10,153 nucleotides of DNA from Leptospirales bacterium (GCA_040326155.1 JBEQLE010000106.1:1-10153), one strand, 5' to 3'. Counted from the first letter of the stretch, positions 1 to 10,153 are shown. Numbers and translations are program-made. Notes: generated by a model from the letters alone, not told the origin.

Positions 1-255
1 GTAGCGAGCCTCCTGGTATTGTTCTCTTGTTGGAAGCTTGTGGCTGCGCGTTTATTAGTGTTTGTCTGGTGATTTTAATTTGATGATGTTTGTTGTCAAA
101 GTTTTTTCAATATTAATAAAATGGCAAAAAATGCGATAATGTGACGAGTTTTTATTTGCCATTATGAATGTTAAGGCAGGCCTGGAATGTACGAAATAAG
201 CTTCTAATTTTGGTGCAAGTCCGGGTCGCTTAGGAGGATCACTCAAAAGGTGGTT

Positions 256-368
256 GAATAACTCTATACTGCAAAGCTAAGGAAAATATTTTACAGTTAA
301 ATATTTGTTGAACTTACGAAATCCGAACAGCCCGAAGGGCACGTCGCATCAACTCTATATAGTTATCG
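256..368 (+). mobile_element. Integron recombination site at the start of the visible array (attI or divergent attC); crossover G|TT at 362/363
   Basis: GTTATCGGCA (362-371) is the exact reverse complement of TGCCGATAAC (1820-1829), which opens the next attC. AACTCTATATAGTT (351-364) is a near-palindrome. AACTCTATA occurs at 260-268 and 351-359. Hairpin GCCC-GAA-GGGC at 330-340. Confidence 0.6.
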
Positions 369-452
369 GCAATAAACGCAGATTGATTCTCAAACTCGCC
401 CGTCCTGGGCTCGCAAAATAAAGAATTGACATCTTGAACGTATTAATGCGAT

Positions 453-481
453 TTCATAATAATATGGTTTACTCTTATAAT
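453..481 (+). promoter_or_regulatory. Putative sigma70 promoter of cassette 1
   Basis: TTCATA (453-458), 17-bp spacer, TATAAT (476-481). SD-like GGGAG at 519-523 before ATG 530. Confidence 0.5.
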
Positions 482-529
482 ACTTGGAAAACTATATATT
501 AAATAAAAACTAAATAGTGGGAGTTAATC

Positions 530-1582
530 ATGAGCGACAACAAGAGTTATGTAATTTGGAACAATAAAGGGGGCGTTGGGAAAAGCACAATAACATTCCA
601 TGTTGCTTCCGTTTATGCTGAGAACCATTTGGATAGAGATGTCGTTGTTGTAGACATGTGTCCTCAAGCAAATTCTTCATCTATGCTAATGGGCGGAGGA
701 AAAGAAAGCGAATCCAAACTTCAAGAATTAATTTCAAAAAATGAACCACAAAGTATTGTAGGTTATATAACTGAAGCAACATTAAAAGGTGATGCGGAAT
801 TAAGTAAATACGTGACTAAATTGAATAGTATAAACTCAAACTTATCTGATAATCTGTATTTGATTTCTGGTGACGGGAATTTAGAGCTTATCGCTCCTTT
901 GCTGTCAGAACGGGCAGAAGCTACACCTCTTTCGGCCACAGATAATCCATGGATCAAAATCCATTCAATTATCAAAGAAATGACTGACAAAAGATTGAAT
1001 TCTGACAGACCTTGCACATATTTTATAGATACAAATCCAAGTTTTGCTATTTATACGCAATTGGCTATTGTCGGCGGTGATAAACTATTGGTCCCAATTA
1101 ATGCTGATGATTCATCAATTTTTGCAATTACTGGTCTCTTTCATTTAATTTGGGGGACATCTGAAAGTCATCCCGTTTATGGAAAATATACTTTTGCTTC
1201 GAAGGCTAAAAAACATGACCTCAAATTGCCTAAGATTTCATTCTTACTTGGTAACAGATTTACACAAAAAAAAGGTGCAGCTCATGCATTTAAAGCATTA
1301 TCTGATGAAGCACTCAAGAAAATGTTCTCAGAGTTTAAAAGTAATCCAGATAAATTTGAACATTTAGAGGGTGAATTCAATGATATAACAGCTTTTGAAA
1401 AAGCTTACAGTATTGAGTTAAGAGATTTTAATAGTGCAGGTGTGGTTGCTGCCAATCAAGGACTTCCGTTAAGTAAAATGGACCAGCATACTTATGAAGT
1501 TTATGGTGAAAAAATACAGGTTGCCAAAGAACAACGCGTATTATGCAAAAAAACTATTGAAGATTTGGTTTCTAAATTATGA
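530..1582 (+). CDS. ParA/Soj-family (deviant Walker A) ATPase, orphan
   Basis: 350 aa. NNKGGVGKST (deviant Walker A), VDMCPQAN (A'), FIDTNP (Walker B), LGNR motif. No parB in the window. Confidence 0.9.
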   Translation: MSDNKSYVIWNNKGGVGKSTITFHVASVYAENHLDRDVVVVDMCPQANSSSMLMGGGKESESKLQELISKNEPQSIVGYITEATLKGDAELSKYVTKLNSINSNLSDNLYLISGDGNLELIAPLLSERAEATPLSATDNPWIKIHSIIKEMTDKRLNSDRPCTYFIDTNPSFAIYTQLAIVGGDKLLVPINADDSSIFAITGLFHLIWGTSESHPVYGKYTFASKAKKHDLKLPKISFLLGNRFTQKKGAAHAFKALSDEALKKMFSEFKSNPDKFEHLEGEFNDITAFEKAYSIELRDFNSAGVVAANQGLPLSKMDQHTYEVYGEKIQVAKEQRVLCKKTIEDLVSKL

Positions 1583-1770
1583 TAATTATTTATAATCTTA
1601 AATATACAAATCCAGCGCCATTACTGAGATATTAAAGATATTGAAGATTGAATAAATTGAACTTGAAAGAAAATTAAAACGACAATAGTATAAAGCTAAC
1701 CCATATCACGATGCAAGTTGACTACAAGGCTTTTCTATTCTATGCTTTTAAAAAATGACACAATAAGTAA

Positions 1771-1801
1771 TAAATTTGGCGTCCGTGCCAAATTTACTTT
1801 T
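1771..1801 (+). terminator. Putative intrinsic terminator hairpin after the ParA gene
   Basis: Perfect 10-bp stem TAAATTTGGC (1771-1780) / GCCAAATTTA (1787-1796) with a 6-nt loop, followed by CTTTT. Confidence 0.5.
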
Positions 1802-1822
1802 GAGTTTAGAAGCGTTGACTGC

Positions 1823-2006
1823 CGATAACAAATTTTAATCTGCTGCGCCCCGACTTCGCGGGTGCTCGGGTTTCGCTAGCGCTCAACCACATTTTGAGAC
1901 TACCTGAGCTTAACCGCCAAGCTCGCACGAAACTTGAGGTTAGTTTGGTGCTCGCTTGGCTGACTCCGGCAGTCTCAAAACATCAGATAAAATTGAAACG
2001 TCAAAT
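1823..2006 (+). mobile_element. attC-like site 1 (184 bp, branched; R' reads GTC instead of GTT)
   Basis: CGATAAC-AAATTTTAATCTG ... CAGATAAAATT-GAAAC-GTCAAAT. The arms pair with one extra base. Internal stems TTTTGAGACT (1892-1901)/AGTCTCAAAA (1971-1980) and GCCAAGC (1916-1922)/GCTTGGC (1954-1960). Confidence 0.8.
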
Positions 2007-2055
2007 GAAATAAGCGCGAATAACACCTGTAAAGTATATCATTATTAATAAATAT

Positions 2056-2084
2056 TTGTCACCATGTTTAAAGATATATACATT
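2056..2084 (+). promoter_or_regulatory. Putative sigma70 promoter of cassette 2
   Basis: TTGTCA (2056-2061), 17-bp spacer, TACATT (2079-2084). Confidence 0.45.
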
Positions 2085-2100
2085 ACCTCCTATCTGTAAT

Positions 2101-3054
2101 ATGAAAAGTTTAGAATGTATTATTTTCAATGTCGATCATGGTTTTTGTGCCTTCATCAAATCCCCAAACGATTATGGTCTTTTAATAGATGCTGGATCTA
2201 AAAATTTATTTTCCCCAGTAAAATACGTGAAAAATGCGTATCCAGGGGGTATATCATTTTTTGAAAAACGCCGTATTGCTGAGTTAATAATTACACATCT
2301 TCATGCAGACCATTTTTCCGATGTGGGAAATCTCAAAGATGCGCAAAAACCTAAACACCTATCTAGGGATAAATCTACATTGGCTCAAATGCGCAGTAAA
2401 ATCAAAAACGCAAAAAATGACGATAGTGGTATTAAGCTTCTGAAGGAATTTGATACTTTTCAAAAAGCATATGATAAGGATTCCGGTGATGAGCCTAATT
2501 GGGGTTTTGATTATTTTGATAAACGTCAAATTACGTACACTACAGCAAATAAAATCTCAGAAAGTGATGACAAGTTAATAAATAATAGAAGTTATATTAC
2601 AGTCATTGAATTTGCTGGTAAGCGAATTCTATTTCCCGGAGATATTGAAGTGGCGGGCTGGGATAAATTTCTTGGAAATGCAACCAATCAAAAGCATATC
2701 AATAATATTAACTTCTTTATTGCGTCGCACCATGGCCATAAATCTGGTTTTACGAAAAGTATTTTAGACTATACAGGTAAGCCAGATTTGTTTATTGTTT
2801 CGGCCAAAAGTGGCGATGAACATATAGATTCATCTTATTCAAATATCGAATATAGTAAAGGTTATCTTATCACAGATGATTCTAAAAAATCAAAAATGGT
2901 ATCAACAAGAGAAAAACAAAGTTCTATTAAAATCATTATTAATGAAGACGGTACGACATCTGTCAGTTACCTTGAAACAAAAAATAATTTAAATGAAAAC
3001 CAGGCTTTCAAGCGTGACCGTGCATTAAAACGCTACAAAAAAATATATCAGTGA
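2101..3054 (+). CDS. Metallo-beta-lactamase-fold hydrolase, ComEC/Rec2-like (probable nuclease or phosphodiesterase)
   Basis: 317 aa from ATG 2101. Motifs FNVDHG, LLIDAG, THLHADH (HxHxDH), ILFPGD and ASHHG. No signal peptide and no ComEC membrane domain. Confidence 0.88.
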   Translation: MKSLECIIFNVDHGFCAFIKSPNDYGLLIDAGSKNLFSPVKYVKNAYPGGISFFEKRRIAELIITHLHADHFSDVGNLKDAQKPKHLSRDKSTLAQMRSKIKNAKNDDSGIKLLKEFDTFQKAYDKDSGDEPNWGFDYFDKRQITYTTANKISESDDKLINNRSYITVIEFAGKRILFPGDIEVAGWDKFLGNATNQKHINNINFFIASHHGHKSGFTKSILDYTGKPDLFIVSAKSGDEHIDSSYSNIEYSKGYLITDDSKKSKMVSTREKQSSIKIIINEDGTTSVSYLETKNNLNENQAFKRDRALKRYKKIYQ

Positions 3055-3057
3055 ATT

Positions 3058-3510
3058 ATGAAAAAAATTATATTATATTTAGTGATTATCATAATCTCAT
3101 TATTAGCGGCTATCAAGTTTCGTGTTAACATTGGTACATTTTTCCATTATGAATTTAATGGTATTTTTAAATCTTTATTTTTTACTATATGGTCTGCTAC
3201 ACTAGGCTCAGTGTTTTATTGCCTACGCGCTGTTTATGAAAATAAATCTGTAAGAAAAAATTGGGATCCCGATTGGGAAGTATGGTATTATATTCGTCCT
3301 ATCACCGGTAGCATTATAGGTTTTGCTGTATGGTTGGCTATTAAATCAGGTTTGCTAATTTTATCTACCGACAGCAGTAATATCAATATTTGGGCTAGTT
3401 CCTTTTTGGGGTTTATCGCTGGTTTAAATGTTAAAAATATACAGTTATTGCTGGAAGAGATTATGCATAAAAAAGTGGGTTTATCAAAAAGCAACCAGTC
3501 AAAAAATTAG
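3058..3510 (+). CDS. Small integral membrane protein (~4 TM), hypothetical
   Basis: 150 aa, starting 3 nt after the MBL stop. Hydrophobic segments at about aa 4-20, 36-56, 77-102 and 110-124. LGS...WYYIRP..G..G..F.AG pattern. Confidence 0.85.
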   Translation: MKKIILYLVIIIISLLAAIKFRVNIGTFFHYEFNGIFKSLFFTIWSATLGSVFYCLRAVYENKSVRKNWDPDWEVWYYIRPITGSIIGFAVWLAIKSGLLILSTDSSNINIWASSFLGFIAGLNVKNIQLLLEEIMHKKVGLSKSNQSKN

Positions 3511-3520
3511 CACTTACTTC

Positions 3521-3757
3521 ATTTAACAAATTTTGGTCTGCTCAGGCGCGCCTTCGGGTCTCGCATCATATTTTACTTTAAATTGATATTCAAGTTTTAA
3601 GAGATAATAGATCTATTATTTTTTCGTAAATGCTCACCCGCAATTTGGGGTGTCTCGACTAATCCGCCAGAGCTCGCACCAAACTTGAGGTTTGTTTTGC
3701 GCTCGTCTAGTGGGTCGAGTCACCCCAAAACGTCAAGATAAAATTGCAACGTTATCT
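3521..3757 (+). mobile_element. attC-like site 2 (237 bp, branched)
   Basis: ATTTAAC (perfect RYYYAAC)-AAATTTTGGTCTG ... AAGATAAAATT-GCAAC-GTTATCT. Homologous to site 1. Stems TTTGGGGTG (3644-3652)/CACCCCAAA (3721-3729) and CTCGAC (3654-3659)/GTCGAG (3714-3719). Confidence 0.82.
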
Positions 3758-3835
3758 GAAAGATTGGGTGTAAATTCCTGTCTAATTTTCTGGTAACATG
3801 CGATTTTAATTTAATTTATTCTTTACGTGCAATTC

Positions 3836-3857
3836 TTAACATAGTATATGTTAAATT
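3836..3857 (+). promoter_or_regulatory. Operator-like palindrome overlapping a putative extended -10 element
   Basis: TTAACATA-GTA-TATGTTAA (3836-3854). TGnTAAATT at 3849-3857, about 20 nt before ATG 3877. Confidence 0.4.
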
Positions 3858-3876
3858 ATAAGTTTCATACTTCAAT

Positions 3877-4950
3877 ATGTCTCCCGATTTTAAAAAAGCT
3901 ACAATAGACGTTCTCTCCAAAAGAGCTGCATTTAAATGTTCAAATCCAGATTGTAGAGTTTCAACCGTTGGCCCCAATTCCGATAATAACAAATCTACTT
4001 CTATTGGTGAAGCAGCACATATTTATGGTGCTCGCGAAACTTCTAAAAGATACATTCCGGACCAAACTAATGTACTTAGATCAGACATAACAAATGCTAT
4101 TTGGTTATGTCGAAATTGCCATAAACTTATCGACACCGATGAAAATAGGTTTTCAGTTTCAACACTATTTGCCTGGCGGGAACATCACGAAAATTATATC
4201 CTCTCGGAGTTGGGTACGGCGACAGATAAAATCCATTTAGAAGAACAAACTGCATTATTATTACAATTTAAAGACCACTCGCCATTGATCCGAAGAATAG
4301 TGCTAGATCAGCCAGATGGTTGGGAGTGGCGTTTAACAGCAGAATTGATGCGCTACCTCAATAATCCACTTTTCCGTAAACTCGACGATTTGAATCAAGG
4401 TCTTTACATAAAAGCTCAAACACACCTTAACGATGAACATGTATTAGACTGGATTTTCAAACGATTGAATGAAGCTTCAAAAATGATTGAACCGTTTCAT
4501 GGCTTACTTGGTAAGTTAACAGAAAGTTTTGGCCCGCCTGGAAAGTCTGGTAGTGTGGAAGAAATATTCCACATTACTAATCTAATACGAGATCAAATCG
4601 AATATATGCTAAAATTCGAAGAGGTAATCCATTTTACAATTGTATCCTCAAAGTATGAAAATCTTTTAAGATTACTAAAAAACATGATTGGTTCTCAAGC
4701 TAAGAAACTTGCAAATATTCCAAAACAGCTTGATGAAGTGGTCGAAATTAGTCACCAGCGTATTGATGAAAAATTAGCAAAACCATTGCGCATAGAAAAT
4801 ATTATCGAATTTAGTGTACCCGAAAACTGGGAAGAGAATTTTGATCAGGAAATGAGGAAGGTACAGGGACGCCCAAGCAAGAAAGCTGAAAAATATAGTA
4901 AAATTTTTGCAATTATAATATTTATTCTGTTTCTTGTGTATGTATGTTAA
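3877..4950 (+). CDS. HNH endonuclease with an uncharacterised helical domain and a C-terminal TM anchor
   Basis: 357 aa. CSNPDC ... GEAAHI ... NAIWLCRNCHKLID in the N-terminal ~105 aa. C-terminus IFAIIIFILFLVYVC preceded by a basic stretch. Confidence 0.88.
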   Translation: MSPDFKKATIDVLSKRAAFKCSNPDCRVSTVGPNSDNNKSTSIGEAAHIYGARETSKRYIPDQTNVLRSDITNAIWLCRNCHKLIDTDENRFSVSTLFAWREHHENYILSELGTATDKIHLEEQTALLLQFKDHSPLIRRIVLDQPDGWEWRLTAELMRYLNNPLFRKLDDLNQGLYIKAQTHLNDEHVLDWIFKRLNEASKMIEPFHGLLGKLTESFGPPGKSGSVEEIFHITNLIRDQIEYMLKFEEVIHFTIVSSKYENLLRLLKNMIGSQAKKLANIPKQLDEVVEISHQRIDEKLAKPLRIENIIEFSVPENWEENFDQEMRKVQGRPSKKAEKYSKIFAIIIFILFLVYVC

Positions 4951-4974
4951 TAAATTCATAATTCGGGCAACAGC

Positions 4975-5074
4975 ATATAACTAATTTTATCTATTCACAC
5001 CCGACTATCTTGCCGATTGCTTGACGTCTCAGTCAATTAATTTTGCAATACGATAGAAAAAGATGCAGCTATTT
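4975..5074 (+). mobile_element. Degenerate attC-like site 3
   Basis: ATATAAC-TAATTTTATCT...CCCGACT resembles the left arm of site 1. Possible right arm ATAGAAAAA...TGCA-GCTATTT (GCT in place of GTT). Internal TTGAC/GTCAA and ATTGC/GCAAT stems. Confidence 0.5.
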
Positions 5075-5101
5075 CCGACTTGATTGTAAAACAATTATTA
5101 G

Positions 5102-5599
5102 GTGCTTTTATTAAAAGTAATAAAATGGAAATTTACTCGCATCCTGAGGAAATGCGCTATTGTGCTAATTAAAACAATTCTTACTAATACGACTAAAAGC
5201 AAATTACGAAAAAACTTAATCAAAGCGGTGAAAAAGAATAAGAAACAAACTCTTTTTGGCTTTATCAAAGGTGATTATTTTGTTTTGCGAAAAAAGAAGT
5301 CAGAGAGCAATTTTCTATTTGTTCCATTTTTCATTGGAAAAATTGAACAAAATAAAAAGCTATATAAAGGCTGTGCATATATGAAAGGCTTCTTTTTTCT
5401 GAAACCAAAACCAGCCCTGCTTTATTATACTGCTATTCTTTATGCTATTGATATATACATCTTGACAAATCACATTTTATCCATTATCATGTTCTTCTTC
5501 CTGGCACTCTATATTATGTTTTCGTTTACCGGAAAATTACAAAAGCATGCTTTGATTCAAACTCTAATGGTTACAGGCATGGAATCTCATTCACGCTAA
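5102..5599 (+). CDS. Hypothetical Lys-rich protein with two C-terminal TM segments (start uncertain, possibly GTG 5162)
   Basis: 165-aa ORF in cassette orientation. Hydrophobic segments PALLYYTAILYAIDIYIL and ILSIIMFFFLALYIMFSF. Confidence 0.6.
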   Translation: MLLLKVIKWKFTRILRKCAIVLIKTILTNTTKSKLRKNLIKAVKKNKKQTLFGFIKGDYFVLRKKKSESNFLFVPFFIGKIEQNKKLYKGCAYMKGFFFLKPKPALLYYTAILYAIDIYILTNHILSIIMFFFLALYIMFSFTGKLQKHALIQTLMVTGMESHSR

Positions 5600-5766
5600 A
5601 AATCCGGTAGAATTTCAAAACTACAATACAGCTTCTGTTTGGCCAATAGTATTATTTTTTTCATCAACTTCTTCGAGAACACTCATAACACTCGCAATAC
5701 AGTCAGACTCAGCTGAAAAACTGCTAAATATACTGGATAGGTCATTAAAAGAACCAGGAAAGTAAC

Positions 5767-5795
5767 AAACAAAAAGCGGCCCATCTCTGGACCGC
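5767..5795 (-). terminator. Intrinsic terminator on the minus strand
   Basis: Minus strand reads GCGGTCCA-GAGA-TGGGCCGC-TTTTTGTTT. Confidence 0.7.
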
Positions 5796-6086
5796 ATGGA
5801 TAAACATAAAAAATATGTTCAATGCCATTTTGTACGTATATTCCGTATGTCAAGCGGTTATCCTGTCACTTAGGACGTTATTCTATGTCCGTAAGGGAAT
5901 GATTGCGTTTAATTATTTTAGCAGATTCAAAATCTTAGCAAATATTCACGAAGATAGTATATTTTATTGAATAAAATTACATTATCTGCTACTTGCGAGA
6001 CCTTTTTAACACGGATCAGGAATTATTGAGAATTTACTAATTTACGTTGTTTTAATCTGCAAAATCACGTTACGTCAGCAATTTAA

Positions 6087-6638
6087 CTATTCTTTCAAGT
6101 AAATATTTAAACCATGCTCAGCATGACATCTGAACTTTTTATTAATTATTTTATTATCAATTGCAACACTACTGATAATAAACTCAGTACAGCCTACAAT
6201 GTTTTCTATTTCTTTATAAAAACTTTTTAAATTTTTTACGTCACTAAATAAATCAATTTCACTGCCAGTAAGCATTAATTGTATTCCATTATCTTGCATT
6301 GCGGTAAATAGATTTTTCAACTGTTTTTCTATACTAACTTGAGTTATATAAATGTGCCTAGGTAAACTAACAGTAACAATATAATAAAACTTTCCTTTAT
6401 GGCAAGAAAGACTACAATCATTAGCCATATAAGAAAATAAAATCTCTTGTCCATTGATTTTACTAAAATCAATATGGTTTAGTTGCACAACTTTACTCTG
6501 CTCAAATTTAGTATCAATTAATATACTCTCCCATATATCACTTAAACAAACAATATGATTTCTAATTAATTTTGCTAATCCTGAATAATTATCTGGTTTT
6601 CTATTTAAAACCATTACTGTGTTTATTTTCTCTGCCAT
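6087..6638 (-). CDS. Putative immunity protein for the RHS toxin
   Basis: 183 aa, very AT-rich, starts 5 nt after the toxin stop. This is the canonical immunity-gene position; no family recognised. Confidence 0.7.
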   Translation of the reverse strand: MAEKINTVMVLNRKPDNYSGLAKLIRNHIVCLSDIWESILIDTKFEQSKVVQLNHIDFSKINGQEILFSYMANDCSLSCHKGKFYYIVTVSLPRHIYITQVSIEKQLKNLFTAMQDNGIQLMLTGSEIDLFSDVKNLKSFYKEIENIVGCTEFIISSVAIDNKIINKKFRCHAEHGLNIYLKE

Positions 6639-6643
6639 ACGTA

Positions 6644-9600
6644 TTATTCTTTAGGGATATCCTTTATTTTATATAAACTTCTAAATTTTCCTTCAGCATC
6701 TAATCTTAGTAATGTGTCGCCAAGTCTGTAATGCGTTTCACCAGCGAATTCCTTTGCATCTTTCGCAAATCTAGTAATGATTGTTTTAGAATTTCGCATT
6801 ACATTTTTAGCAATCTGCATATATTTTTCAACTTCATGGGGTTTTAATCCAAATTCAGCCCAATGGCGACCAAGTTTAGTACCGACCTGCTTAGTTACAT
6901 TTGCAAATTTAAAAATATTATTGGCCTTAAACATTCCAGTTAAGCTTTGAACCCAACGTGGCATACCCGAAAAAATTCCACGCAAACTGCCTGTATTTTT
7001 TAGATTTTTGGCAACGACAACAACAGAGACTGCTACTACTGCAACGGTAGTTACACCTACCAAAATCTTTTGTGTTGTTGTAAGCTTTGTTGTTTCTTCC
7101 GGGCGGGGTTCATTAGCCCAAGACGGCCTTGCTTGCCTTCCATCTGGATCAATTAATTTTACTGGATTTACCCCAGCATAATGATACAGGTTTGCATTGA
7201 CGCTATTGAAAACCCCACCAGATCCTTTCAGACTTTTTGCATTAAAAGCTTTCTCAGGAAAATAAACCTGCTCTCCCTTCGGTAGATACTCCGATAGGGC
7301 AGGATCAGTTGACAACCAAACACCAACCTTCGGATCATAATACCTCGCGCCAAAGTAATAGTACCCGGTCTCCTCATCGAGTTCTTTTCCGGTAAATTTA
7401 TAACCCAGCACATCAAAGTTACTATTATCCTTCGCATCCTCAAACCAGATTTCACCAAACGGATAGTACAACGTGCGTTCATATTTCGCGCCATCTGCAT
7501 CCGTAATTAGACTTGTAGAACCGAGGTGGTCCGCATGGTAAAAATATATTACTTCGGCTTTCCCTTTGGTTGCACCAGAGCCACGCCCGCCGCCACCTTT
7601 GGTTGTGGTCTGGTTATTATTTTTGTTATTATTTCCATCACTCACTCGGCGATCTTCCACCGGTACGTCGTAATATCCATTAGCGACGGCTTTGCCTTGC
7701 GCTTTGGACGGACCTCTAACACCCTTATTATCTGTGTTTGCGTTGGTATTATATCGTCCATTGGCCGCATTCGTGTTGTTGCCGCCTTTGCCCTGGTTGC
7801 CTTTGGCTGTCCCTTGCGCTTCTTCGCAGTCTCGCTTTGCAAATCCTTTTAAATCTTGACATGGGTCTGTGGTGGATGTGGTATTTTTGCCTTTTCCTTT
7901 TCCCTTGTCAGCGTTTTTATCTTTGCCTTGACCTTTTCCCTTGCCTGCACTTTTTCCACGTTGTTTTCCTGTTGTTGTGGTTTGCGTGGTGTCGGCTTGG
8001 GTAGTTGTCTGGGAACTGTTTTGCGAGGTAGTTAAATCTTTACCTTTGCCGGTAATTGTTACGCCATCCATCCCAATATAATCATTTAAGGTTTGCGGCT
8101 GGTCGGCGACAGGTTCTGCTATAACTTTCATACGTTTTCCGACGGCTGTCACTCTGGTTGCTATTCTTATGCTTCCCGCATAGATATGGCTGGAACCAAC
8201 GTAGTCATCTGTTACGGTGTAGAACTGGTTTATGTATAAGGTCTCTCCGTTTGGTCCTTGTTTTCTGACTCTTTCGCCGCCTGCGTCATAGGTGAACTTT
8301 GTTATTCTGTTTTTCTGATCATTTACGGCTTGCAGTCTGTTTTCACTCGACCACGTCATGTCGCGCAGCTCTCCGGTTTGACCATTTTCTCTGTTTATCT
8401 GGTTTCCGTTTTCGTCGAATGTATAATACAAGGGCTCTTTTGCTTGTCGTGAATCAGTGTAAGTTATATCTACCTGGCTTATGGCATGTGGTTTTTCACC
8501 ATTGTAAGAGTATGCCATGTCGTAGTTTTGCATCGGGTCGTTCACGGCTTTTCCACTGGTCGAGGTTACGCTGAACCTTGCCATTTTGCGTGTCATGTTA
8601 TGAATTTTATCGTAGCCATATTCTCTGTTGTAAGTATACGATTTATATCCATTATTTACGTGGTATTTAAAGCTTCCGGTCGCTTTGGTTAGTCGATAAA
8701 GGTCGTCATACTCAAAGTCTTGTACTAAAGAGTCTTTTATATTATCTTTTATCGATAAGATGTTTCCTACTTTGTCGTATGTATAATTGATATCTTGTAT
8801 TTTCTCGCTGCCCGAAATGGTTTTTAAATTTGAGAGTCTTCTATTTAATGGATTGTACGCATAGGTTGTTTTTGCACCGTTTCCGAGTTCTAAATAATTG
8901 CGTTGCCCGTATTCATCGTAGCCGAGTTGTTCTAAATAGACTACGTTTTTATTGTCGCGCACAGATTCTACGTGTTGCAGTAATCCACCTTCGTCGTAAG
9001 TATAATCGAGTACCTCTCCGTCGGGGTATGTTATCTGTTTCATTCTTGCGAAGCTGTCGAATCTCATATGCGTTGAAAATCGCCCGGTCGTTCCGTCAAA
9101 AAGCGGTAGAATTTTATCGGTTCTTGTTGTCTCACCAAGTTTTCCGTAAAATAACTCTGTGGCTCCCGATTCGTCAACTATTTTTGTTATTCTACCAGCC
9201 CGATTGTCTTTTGTATCGTTCGGCGTTCCGTAGAAATATTCTACGTCGACTTCTCCTGCCGGGTAGTCGATTTTATTTAGTCTACTGTACTCATATACAT
9301 ATTGTATAGACTTCTTTTGCACCTTTAATTTTGCATCGACTTTTTCGATCAGATTACCCACAAGATCATATGTGAACTCTGTTCTACCCGCGTCGGGGTT
9401 GTCAATTGCCGTTCTTCTTCCCAGGGTGTCGTAATCGACTGTGGTTTTGTTTCCTTTTGCGTCTGTTACGGTGAGTATTTCCCCAATGGCGTTGTAGTCA
9501 TAATGTGTTTCTATTGCATTTGCGCCGTTGTATTCTCGTATCTTTTGTATTTTTCCATATATATCTGAATAGCTCTCTTTTTTATTCCCGTTTTGGTCGA

Positions 9601-10153
9601 CGACGATTGTTTTCATGGAACCGTTTTGTATGGAATATCCTGTTTGTGTTATGGACCCGTCCGGTGTTTGCACTTTGATCGTTCTTCCCATGTCGTCATA
9701 GGTCATTATCGCTGGATTTTTCATCGGGATTGTTGCCAGATAATTTACGGCTACGCCTGGTTCAAAGACAGGCTGACCTTGTCGGGTAACTCTTCCCATT
9801 TCGTCGAACTCTACTCTTCCCGTTGTCGTATAACCTAATACGGCTTGTCCGTTTTGATTTACTTCTGACTCTTTTTTTGTCTGGATGACTCTTCTTAATG
9901 AGTCTATAAATATTACTGTGTCTAAGGTCCTGGTTGTTTCGTAGTCTTCTCTATTTTTGGTTACGGCCCTTGCTGGTTTTTCTTCGGGGTAGTATTCCAT
10001 CGAGAGCGTTCCCAGGTTATCTGTTGCGGGGTCTAAATACGGGCCCCAGACTTTTTTCGTTCTTCCGAAGCTGTCGTATTTATAGTTTATAAAATTTCCG
10101 TTTAAATCTGTAACCCTGATCACTGTGCCTAGTTTATAGTCATACTCTGAAAG
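6644..10153 (-). CDS. RHS/YD-repeat polymorphic toxin, 5'-truncated by the window edge
   Basis: Many YDxxGR repeats. Core motifs YFYHADHLGS, YYPFGE, FTGKELDEETGYYYFGARYYDP and NPVKLIDPDGR. The frame stays open from 10123 to the window end (LSEYDYKLGT). Confidence 0.95.
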   Translation of the reverse strand, partial: LSEYDYKLGTVIRVTDLNGNFINYKYDSFGRTKKVWGPYLDPATDNLGTLSMEYYPEEKPARAVTKNREDYETTRTLDTVIFIDSLRRVIQTKKESEVNQNGQAVLGYTTTGRVEFDEMGRVTRQGQPVFEPGVAVNYLATIPMKNPAIMTYDDMGRTIKVQTPDGSITQTGYSIQNGSMKTIVVDQNGNKKESYSDIYGKIQKIREYNGANAIETHYDYNAIGEILTVTDAKGNKTTVDYDTLGRRTAIDNPDAGRTEFTYDLVGNLIEKVDAKLKVQKKSIQYVYEYSRLNKIDYPAGEVDVEYFYGTPNDTKDNRAGRITKIVDESGATELFYGKLGETTRTDKILPLFDGTTGRFSTHMRFDSFARMKQITYPDGEVLDYTYDEGGLLQHVESVRDNKNVVYLEQLGYDEYGQRNYLELGNGAKTTYAYNPLNRRLSNLKTISGSEKIQDINYTYDKVGNILSIKDNIKDSLVQDFEYDDLYRLTKATGSFKYHVNNGYKSYTYNREYGYDKIHNMTRKMARFSVTSTSGKAVNDPMQNYDMAYSYNGEKPHAISQVDITYTDSRQAKEPLYYTFDENGNQINRENGQTGELRDMTWSSENRLQAVNDQKNRITKFTYDAGGERVRKQGPNGETLYINQFYTVTDDYVGSSHIYAGSIRIATRVTAVGKRMKVIAEPVADQPQTLNDYIGMDGVTITGKGKDLTTSQNSSQTTTQADTTQTTTTGKQRGKSAGKGKGQGKDKNADKGKGKGKNTTSTTDPCQDLKGFAKRDCEEAQGTAKGNQGKGGNNTNAANGRYNTNANTDNKGVRGPSKAQGKAVANGYYDVPVEDRRVSDGNNNKNNNQTTTKGGGGRGSGATKGKAEVIYFYHADHLGSTSLITDADGAKYERTLYYPFGEIWFEDAKDNSNFDVLGYKFTGKELDEETGYYYFGARYYDPKVGVWLSTDPALSEYLPKGEQVYFPEKAFNAKSLKGSGGVFNSVNANLYHYAGVNPVKLIDPDGRQARPSWANEPRPEETTKLTTTQKILVGVTTVAVVAVSVVVVAKNLKNTGSLRGIFSGMPRWVQSLTGMFKANNIFKFANVTKQVGTKLGRHWAEFGLKPHEVEKYMQIAKNVMRNSKTIITRFAKDAKEFAGETHYRLGDTLLRLDAEGKFRSLYKIKDIPKE
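6647..7135 (-). other. C-terminal toxin region (163 aa) after DPDGR: hydrophobic helix plus colicin D/BECR-like RNase candidate
   Basis: ILVGVTTVAVVAVSVVVVA, then KLGRHWAEFG ... YMQIAKNV ... LLRLDAEGKFRSLY. Confidence 0.55.
7556..8149 (-). repeat. 198-aa low-complexity G/K/N/T/Q insert inside the RHS protein
   Basis: GKGKG, TTQ and NNN runs between IYAGSIRIATRV and EVIYFYHADHLGS. Confidence 0.8.

Follow-up and report, generated by a model that had tools for sequence, protein, structure and literature searches.

A probable integron-type gene-cassette array with large attC-like sites and accessory, partly defence-like cargo in a Leptospira-like spirochaete

Three consecutive gene units on one strand of a contig from a Leptospirales bacterium (GCA_040326155.1, JBEQLE010000106.1) raise the question of whether genes of this spirochaete are carried as integron-type cassettes and, if so, whether their cargo is anti-phage defence. 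The window analysed is the whole contig of 10,153 nucleotides (nt), C7 in our numbering, of a genome (G000) of 4.26 Mb in 171 contigs (94.7% complete, 39.6% GC). The units hold a gene for a ParA-like ATPase (unit 1), genes for a metallo-β-lactamase (MBL)-fold hydrolase and a 150-aa protein (unit 2) and a gene for an HNH protein (unit 3); a preliminary description had taken them for a mobile library of defence modules. We read the window as a short integron-type gene-cassette array with horizontally acquired accessory cargo, and give this reading a probability of roughly 0.7.

Flank exchange and the attC-like sites

Unit 2 (2001-3751, plus strand) is the only clean cassette of the three and the sole unit between two intact sites. 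Site A (1823-2006, plus strand, 184 nt; element 1804-2019) contains an intact hairpin and consists of R'' (CGATAAC), L'' (AAATTTTAATCTG), a modular hairpin core, L' (CAGATAAAATT), the spacer GAAAC and R' (GTCAAAT). Site B (3521-3757, plus strand, 237 nt; element 3505-3764) has the same architecture with an additional AT-rich insert module of ∼53 nt, and the two elements have three conserved blocks in common. Folded as single-stranded DNA, elements A and B reach z-scores of -5.0 and -3.8, with none of 200 shuffled sequences as good.

Crossover in an integron takes place at G|TT, and the bases that follow the GTT of a site, being part of the next cassette, consequently correspond to the R'' flank of the site after it and not to that of the same site. 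We looked for this displacement across the genome at 31 right ends and 65 left ends of such sites; 13 right ends have a left end downstream on the same strand. The footprint of a G|TT crossover is found in six of these 13 neighbouring pairs, including unit 2: 11-16 of 19 flank bases are complementary to the next left flank, a score above those of all 63-64 non-partners. The elements' own left flanks score 3-9 of 19, which is background (mean ∼6). The best footprint is that of unit 2, with 16 of 19 bases beyond the triplet and 18 of 22 overall (the first 22 nt of the unit compared with the 22 nt that precede the AAC in site B). Because the next flank matches while own flanks stay at background, we favour cassette-type recombination over transposition of the kind seen with miniature inverted-repeat transposable elements (MITEs).

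Iterated nhmmer searches of the genome gave 92 matches, which resolve into 84 elements on 51 of the 171 contigs (46 on the plus and 38 on the minus strand, 26 within 1 kb of a contig end, many of them solo or partial); short same-strand arrays are also found, with five sites on contig C16 and three each on C106 and C83. So many copies on both strands, often truncated or at contig ends, could suggest that the repeats are MITE-like or REP-like palindromes (repetitive extragenic palindromes) that spread as whole units between unrelated genes, the cassettes being only apparent. The lack of a canonical integron integrase, the mixed orientation of genes and the neighbouring pairs without a footprint, all taken up below, point the same way. 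Such elements, however, would be expected to have matching flanks of their own, as inverted repeats or a target duplication, and in this genome it is the flank of the next element that matches in the six pairs. The same footprint is found between a recombinase-proximal GTT and the first site in five other genomes, and the arrays adjoin one recombinase family. We consider the MITE or REP explanation improbable.

The 26 full copies show where the sites begin and end: conservation sets in at ..TAAC, followed by AAATTTT(N)ATCTG, and stops at CAGATAAAATT, GAAAC and GTTA.., with variable flanks on either side. The order R''-L''-variable part-L'-spacer-R' is that of integron attC sites, and classical-looking boxes (GCCTAAC and GTTAGGC) occur among the copies. 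The family thus has the imperfect inverted repeats, predicted to fold as single strands, of attC sites, with differences in length, spacer and L box: the sites measure 184-237 nt in the window and up to ∼310 nt elsewhere in the genome (classical attC sites are roughly 57-141 nt long), the spacer is asymmetric (∼1 nt versus 5 nt) and some of the copies lack the extra base of the L box. Across 19 copies and 56 pairs, 81.5% of the cells are paired, compared with 34-48% when the partners are slid, a figure that is biased upward because element A's own fold supplied the structure (the RNAalifold consensus itself gave 20 pairs only). The counts of compensatory changes are unbiased: changes on both sides are seen in 24 pairs, versus 12-17 in the slid controls, and none of 500 shuffles reaches the observed values.

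Strong hairpin conservation with compensatory changes is also what an RNA would show. The hairpins might act at the level of RNA or transcription, as terminators, mRNA stabilisers or insulators conserved for that role; repeats do lie 3' of genes, and a terminator-like hairpin with a T-run (1771-1796, listed on the plus strand and readable on both) is found just upstream of site A and is common to two other copies of the same site subfamily. On the other side, no Rfam family matches the repeats at E ≤ 1, the orientation of the repeats on other contigs is independent of that of the neighbouring genes, and a role in RNA leaves the AAC/GTT boundaries, the flank exchange and the linkage to a recombinase unexplained. 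As the main account of these sites it is highly improbable; roles in RNA and in recombination are not mutually exclusive.

The preliminary description had marked the three units by short complementary cores and by the lengths of their leaders, and both hold when re-counted in the sequence. The core of unit 1 (GTTATCGGCA, 362-371) is the reverse complement of 1820-1829 at 10/10 positions, that of unit 2 (GTCAAATGAA, 2000-2009) matches the reverse complement of 3518-3527 at 9/10, and that of unit 3 (GTTATCTG, 3751-3758) agrees with the reverse complement of 4974-4981 at 7/8. From the nucleotide that follows the G up to the ATG codons at 530, 2101 and 3877, the leaders are 167, 100 and 125 nt long. 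Shuffled cores equal the score in the region 3' of the gene in 15 out of 2000 cases for unit 1 (a control with its register off by one base and a score of 9/10), 27 out of 2000 for unit 2 and 101 out of 2000 for unit 3; the last frequency makes the 7/8 pair weak on its own. Absent from that description is that the cores are the tips of far larger repeats.

Both outer boundaries are formed by decayed members of the family. Unit 1 (363-2000, plus strand) has attC-like sites at both ends, inverted and with their R'' sides toward the gene, which makes it atypical. Its left core is also the end of an inverted copy (135-364, minus strand, with the match extending to 386), so that the GTT at 362-364 is the AAC of the other strand; this copy covers profile positions 5-205 in nhmmer (E = 1e-17) and can be aligned with 25 other copies. 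Unit 3 (3752-4981, plus strand) extends from the G|TT of site B to a degenerate left half-repeat only (4957-5075, plus strand), whose AAC lies at 4979-4981. This half-site has an R'' box (ATATAAC) followed by TAATTTTATCT, with two mismatches to the left motif and with neither a right half nor a hairpin, and 40 nt of it are 82% like the site on contig C99. We call both sites decayed because neither folds better than shuffles (z = -0.1 for 135-386 and +1.0 for 4957-5075). Clusters of attC sites lacking an integrase (CALINs) are defined by at least two neighbouring attC sites and no integrase gene in the vicinity; the window has two intact sites 1.7 kb apart and two decayed ones, on a contig of 10,153 nt that encodes no recombinase.

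For the subfamily of sites to which unit 1 belongs, the start of the cassette and the flank of the site are complementary over ∼58 nt (1771-1829 versus 362-420), a stretch that includes one small GC hairpin per side; the palindrome thus extends far past the conserved core and has the crossover within it. Two solo cassettes on other contigs (C112:4957-7317 and C138:45258-46864) begin with the same GTTATCGGCA... box and show the complementary R'' flank of a site 1.4-2.2 kb further on. They have no site upstream and look like insertions at non-attC positions.

A recombinase and an attI-like junction

A candidate enzyme is encoded on contig C12 (8247-9305): a tyrosine recombinase of 352 aa, distinct from the XerC-like and XerD-like genes, in which the catalytic residues R, K, HxxR, H and Y are readable. 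It scores 206 bits with NF040815 (XerA / 'integron integrase', cut-off 220) and 182 bits with TIGR02249 (cut-off 265); its best solved relative is the archaeal XerA (4a8e), and the alignment to Vibrio IntI4 (2a3v) covers residues 11-190 and 245-317, where ∼14 residues face the 55 residues of IntI4 between them (190-245), so that the IntI-specific segment is missing. The nearest relatives of one of the recombinases of the genome are found in metagenome-assembled genomes (MAGs) of Spirochaetia and Leptospiraceae (37-40% identity), in keeping with an uncultured Leptospira-like spirochaete.

The start of unit 1 and this gene have a box in common: the 21-nt junction box GTTATCGGCAATAAACGCAGA (362-382, plus strand) recurs identically ∼150 nt upstream of the start of the recombinase gene, on the opposite strand, and C12 ends 80 nt later. 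No overlap of at least 15 nt was found between the ends of C12 or C7 and those of other contigs; because the two are not joined, we infer the enzyme that serves the sites in this genome, and it is probably the single XerA/IntI-like recombinase on C12 rather than a classical integron integrase. Beyond the box, C12:9493-9522 shares ∼30 nt (GTCCAGCGACAATTAGAAATGCCGGTTGAC) with DNA downstream of a site on C99, near 41,700, which may be a further repeat and possibly the cause of the contig break.

In several related genomes the recombinase and the arrays are found side by side. Homologues are encoded in 23 out of 40 related genomes (36-46% identity over the catalytic part), often ∼500 nt from a contig end. 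For example, 11-12 sites spaced 0.8-1.2 kb apart, with small open reading frames (ORFs) between them, lie divergent from the recombinase gene in genome G012 (locus L045), whose recombinase also stays under the IntI cut-off (192 bits versus 265). Direct-repeat arrays or weak matches to the site profile lie divergent beside the gene in a Turneriella MAG, G018, G028, G009 and G013, and neither was found within 17 kb of the gene in G021, G039 and G035. Among 80 recombinase loci of other genomes, the site profile gave 2 weak matches only, and self-comparison found direct-repeat clusters (at least three) in 15. Searching the DNA of the 40 relatives with positions 1-6100 of the window returned matches in the repeat parts and none in the genes.

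Upstream of the recombinase genes of the relatives, CGCAAT motifs are followed by a ..A|GTT junction, and C12 too has CGCAAT and the GTT box. The flank test was extended to this junction at seven loci, with the first site 0.5-1.2 kb downstream; in five genomes the first 20 nt past the recombinase-proximal GTT are complementary, at 19/20, 19/20, 17/20, 16/20 and 16/20 positions, to the 20 nt just in front of the first site's AAC, and the remaining two loci end too early. This complementarity is the footprint of attI × attC insertion. The full layout of attI-like junction, recombinase and array is found in G012, G018, G019, G013 and the Turneriella MAG.

A mechanism that would account for these features is as follows. 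Each cassette ends in a long imperfect palindrome that runs from R'' (..TAAC) and L'' through a hairpin of variable, modular make-up to L', a spacer of 5 nt and R' (GTTA..), and a tyrosine recombinase would most likely cut and rejoin this DNA, folded as single strands, at the conserved G|TT. Excised as circles, cassettes could then be inserted again next to the recombinase gene (attI), into other members of the site family or into secondary sites.

Cargo genes and their leaders

The window has four cargo ORFs, all on the plus strand and in the same orientation as sites A and B. Unit 1 encodes the ParA-like ATPase, a member of the ParA/MinD superfamily (530-1582, 350 aa; Pfam AAA_31, E = 5.6e-15, and CbiA, 6.1e-9). 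Unit 2 encodes the MBL-fold metallo-hydrolase (2101-3054, 317 aa; Lactamase_B, 1.6e-8) and, beginning 4 nt past it, a small membrane-type protein with ∼4 hydrophobic segments (3058-3510, 150 aa). The HNH protein of unit 3 (3877-4950; HNH_2, 5e-4) has an HNH nuclease N-terminus (residues 1-123), a helical domain (125-332) and a hydrophobic C-terminal tail. The possibility that these are syntenic core genes can be set aside: they are low in GC (31-36% for all cargo genes, compared with 39.6% for the genome) and sporadic among 189 other genomes of the class. Homologues of the MBL hydrolase are found in none of the 189 at E ≤ 1e-5, those of the HNH protein in six (via the first ∼110 residues only) and a full-length relative of the ATPase in one.

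Two of the three units carry genes that resemble components of candidate defence systems. The MBL protein matches PADLOC family PDC-M48B over residues 2-265 (5.8e-31) and, more weakly, the MBL effector models RTasMBL (DRT), LmuA (Lamassu) and Avs1a (AVAST); residues 1-123 of the HNH protein match PDC-M68A (3.9e-24) and also HNH effectors of CBASS type. Structural look-alikes of the helical domain (TM 0.72-0.79) are fused to restriction endonuclease (REase), DUF4062 or TIR domains; this apparent swapping of the C-terminal part would be typical of defence proteins, and we treat it as a lead only. The 150-aa protein has no Pfam, NCBIfam or PADLOC match, and its look-alikes in the ESM Atlas are unnamed membrane proteins of ∼150 aa. 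A defence function is plausible for units 2 and 3: the MBL and membrane protein pair, and the HNH fusion, would most likely be anti-phage effectors of nuclease type, each with a partner or anchor in the membrane.

For the ParA-like ATPase, PADLOC gave no significant match to defence models, so that the defence likeness claimed for all three units is borne out in part for the MBL and HNH genes and not for the ATPase. Nor is it part of a recognisable ParABS system: unit 1 has no partner gene, the score with NF041546 is 40 bits (cut-off 180), and a Nostoc plasmid encodes a homologue at a distance from its own ParA-ParB pair. Full-length homologues with 80-85% identity are found in Vibrio, Shewanella, Chitinimonas, Nitrosococcus and many Bacteroidota, with no conserved neighbour across 19 metagenome loci. 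We take it, from this distribution, for a widely transferred stand-alone orphan gene. Across Gammaproteobacteria, Betaproteobacteria, Bacteroidota and the spirochaete the DNA identity is ∼75% and the flanks are unrelated. Similarity to 51 metagenome loci is limited to the coding region, which ruled out delimiting a mobile unit around the gene by DNA homology. A crude scan for classical attC palindromes beside homologues gave one clear case in nine loci: an 87-nt palindrome (GTCTAAC...GTTAGAC, L206:1858-1944) lies 60 nt past the stop codon of a 66%-identical homologue, which is perhaps an ordinary integron cassette. In phage phi297 (L247, 3456-4508) a full-length homologue with 34% identity directly follows, co-oriented, a CI-like repressor gene, where genes that a prophage expresses are typically located.

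Strong PADLOC matches are also found among site-adjacent genes on other contigs (L149:1709-4297, L147:7547-9148, L157:1203-2963, L161:1067-6181 and L163:4191-7190). The site-adjacent matches include PDC-S28 (1e-100), OLD/Gabija (GajA)/AriA-type ATPases (2e-38 and 6.5e-20), a PD-T4-6-type kinase of 1,704 aa (3e-54), Ppl (3e-35) and mad3. In another case (L152, C83:1-9500) three minus-strand genes lie between sites at 451-715 and 4626-4758; two of the three match PADLOC CARF (3e-28) and PRTase_III-A (2e-19), and a PycC-like cyclase ORF follows at 6267-7559.

The array may be real and its cargo something other than anti-phage, with the ParA-like protein serving DNA positioning or partition of a mobile element and the MBL and HNH proteins acting as accessory enzymes or interbacterial toxins. 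The ATPase without a significant defence match fits this, as do PDC families that are candidates with one component each in the window. So does the neighbourhood: downstream of the array, 6087-10153 (minus strand) holds an RHS-repeat gene that runs off the contig end, so that 1,169 residues of the C-terminal part are encoded (RHS_repeat, 4e-26), with a small putative immunity gene next to it. Published Xer-associated arrays (rAID-1) are described as carrying immunity genes, not anti-phage genes (10.1101/471110). On the other hand, the MBL protein matches effector models of DRT, Lamassu and AVAST and the HNH protein those of CBASS, the HNH C-terminal domain recurs with REase, DUF4062 and TIR, no cargo of the window resembles immunity proteins in the libraries searched, and a phage homologue of the ATPase lies beside a cI gene. 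We regard a cargo without anti-phage function as rather unlikely. The ORF beside the RHS gene, on the minus strand directly downstream of it, has 183 aa and 26% GC, the usual layout of a polymorphic toxin and its immunity gene; library scans gave no family match for this ORF or for the tip of the RHS toxin. Between the degenerate site and the RHS locus, a hydrophobic ORF (5102-5599, plus strand, 165 aa, 30.5% GC) has a weak PADLOC match to PDC-M04B (E = 0.002).

The preliminary description had also seen promoter-like motifs in the leaders, and here the outcome is mixed: candidates are found in leaders 1 and 2, none on the plus strand in leader 3, and the overall frequency is about that of chance. 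The first ∼65 nt of leader 1 recur at eight other places of the genome and are part of an extended recombination site. A leader module common to four cassettes has aligned TTGACA and TATAAT-like boxes ∼26 nt apart. Integron cassettes are mostly promoterless, co-oriented and read from the promoter Pc. The many genes elsewhere that oppose their sites are an indirect hint that cassettes would need promoters of their own.

Weight of the evidence and meaning

A number of findings weigh against a cassette array with defence-like cargo. The flank score of unit 3 is 6/19, which is background, and seven of the 13 neighbouring pairs, unit 3 among them, have no footprint; in at least three of these seven the 'next' left end does not belong to the adjacent element (one was missed by the motif search, or there is a 15-kb gap). 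Two of the four sites of the window no longer fold, and the dispersal of the sites over both strands, their solo or partial copies and their positions at contig ends are not what one sedentary array would show. On other contigs genes point either way relative to the sites, with five of seven ORFs on C16 opposing them. No canonical integron integrase is found over the TIGR02249 cut-off in the genome (94.7% complete), the C12 candidate lacks the additional IntI-specific domain around patch III that classical integron integrases carry, and recombinase and window are on separate contigs. As to the cargo, only the M48B and M68A models of the PDC-M48 and PDC-M68 systems are matched in the window, and on plasmids the homologues of the MBL gene have another neighbour, an upstream gene for a protein of ∼240 aa. 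The PDC families are themselves predictions, described as candidates derived from embedding in known systems and not validated (10.1101/2024.01.29.577857); the term PDC-M48 had no match in the literature. PADLOC matches at E ≤ 1e-5 are not enriched near sites (11 out of 92 ORFs in 16 site-bearing stretches, compared with 12 out of 135 ORFs in eight control stretches taken at random); the counts are 6/92 and 0/135 at E ≤ 1e-25, a cut-off that was set with the data already in view. A consensus promoter scan of positions 1-6200 found 40 sites, near the 29.2 ± 5.6 of shuffled sequences.

What remains of the mobile library of defence modules is, first of all, its integron part: AAC...GTT sites, the flank footprint, and a recombinase gene that adjoins an attI-like junction, on another contig of the genome as well as in relatives, speak for integron-type cassettes, and the defence part stands in part only. 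With sedentary integrons and CALINs (e.g. the Vibrio superintegron) the system shares R''-L''...L'-R' palindromes with AAC/GTT, the G|TT footprint, a divergent recombinase with an attI-like junction (here in the relatives) and accessory, partly defence-like cargo. It differs in its recombinase, which lacks the IntI-specific domain, in sites of 184-309 nt whose pairing continues 19-58 nt past the crossover, and in the dispersal of the sites as short arrays and solo copies on both strands with mixed gene orientation. An additional IntI-specific domain is described as the defining feature of integron integrases (PMC9668308), and cassettes of sedentary chromosomal integrons are described as encoding anti-phage systems, one of them with its own promoter (10.1101/2024.07.02.601686).

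Another close likeness is rAID-1 of the Bacteroidales, reported as low-GC gene arrays with repetitive intergenic sequences 'reminiscent of integrons' and an XerD-family recombinase (10.1101/471110). By their descriptions, both have a non-IntI tyrosine recombinase of Xer type together with low-GC accessory arrays and integron-like intergenic repeats. The rAID-1 arrays are defined there by a 5', co-directional XerD-like recombinase with more than 44% identity to BF9343_RS08045 and by low-GC co-directional genes, whereas the recombinase in the relatives studied here is divergent and the phylum is another; the rAID-1 cargo is described as orphan immunity genes, that of the window is of nuclease or ATPase type. 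Unlike PDC-M48 and PDC-M68, described as multi-gene candidates, the window has no match to PDC-M48A or PDC-M68B, and the partner of the MBL protein is the 150-aa membrane protein.

Taken together, the observations allow a wider reading, possible and meant as tentative: the class that contains Leptospira would have a lineage-wide analogue of the integron, with a XerA-like integrase that lacks the IntI domain, giant modular sites and more than 80 scattered cassettes, some of them solo at non-attC positions, in either orientation and self-promoted. This would be a distributed, self-expressed library of defence and accessory genes and not one silent array. In such a system the giant sites would fold fully only in the excised circle, because their pairing reaches 20-58 nt beyond the crossover.

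Treponema is the sole spirochaete clade with integrons according to an abstract of 2013 (PMC3607928), and at the level of titles and the beginnings of abstracts the literature gave no Leptospira integron with attC sites and nothing for Turneriella. Integron-like arrays with Xer-type recombinases are known from rAID-1; the lineage, the giant sites and their dispersal are what we found undescribed. With the rAID-1 idea already in print for Bacteroidales, the gain is one of breadth and detail, not of a new principle: the cassette reading is largely right, and the mechanism would be an integron variant whose recombinase is not of IntI type and whose sites are giant, modular and dispersed. The 80-85% identity of the ATPase across phyla points to strong selection and to frequent transfer. 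For experiments the window holds three compact objects, each with its own boundaries: the MBL and membrane protein pair, the HNH fusion of swappable modules and the orphan ATPase. Giant sites are probably under-detected by tools tuned to classical attC sizes. If a C12-type recombinase moves the cassettes, integron-style capture needs no IntI-specific domain and takes place in a bacterial class for which we found no integron described; this would help to explain attC clusters without an integrase and would widen the search for cassette-borne defence genes.

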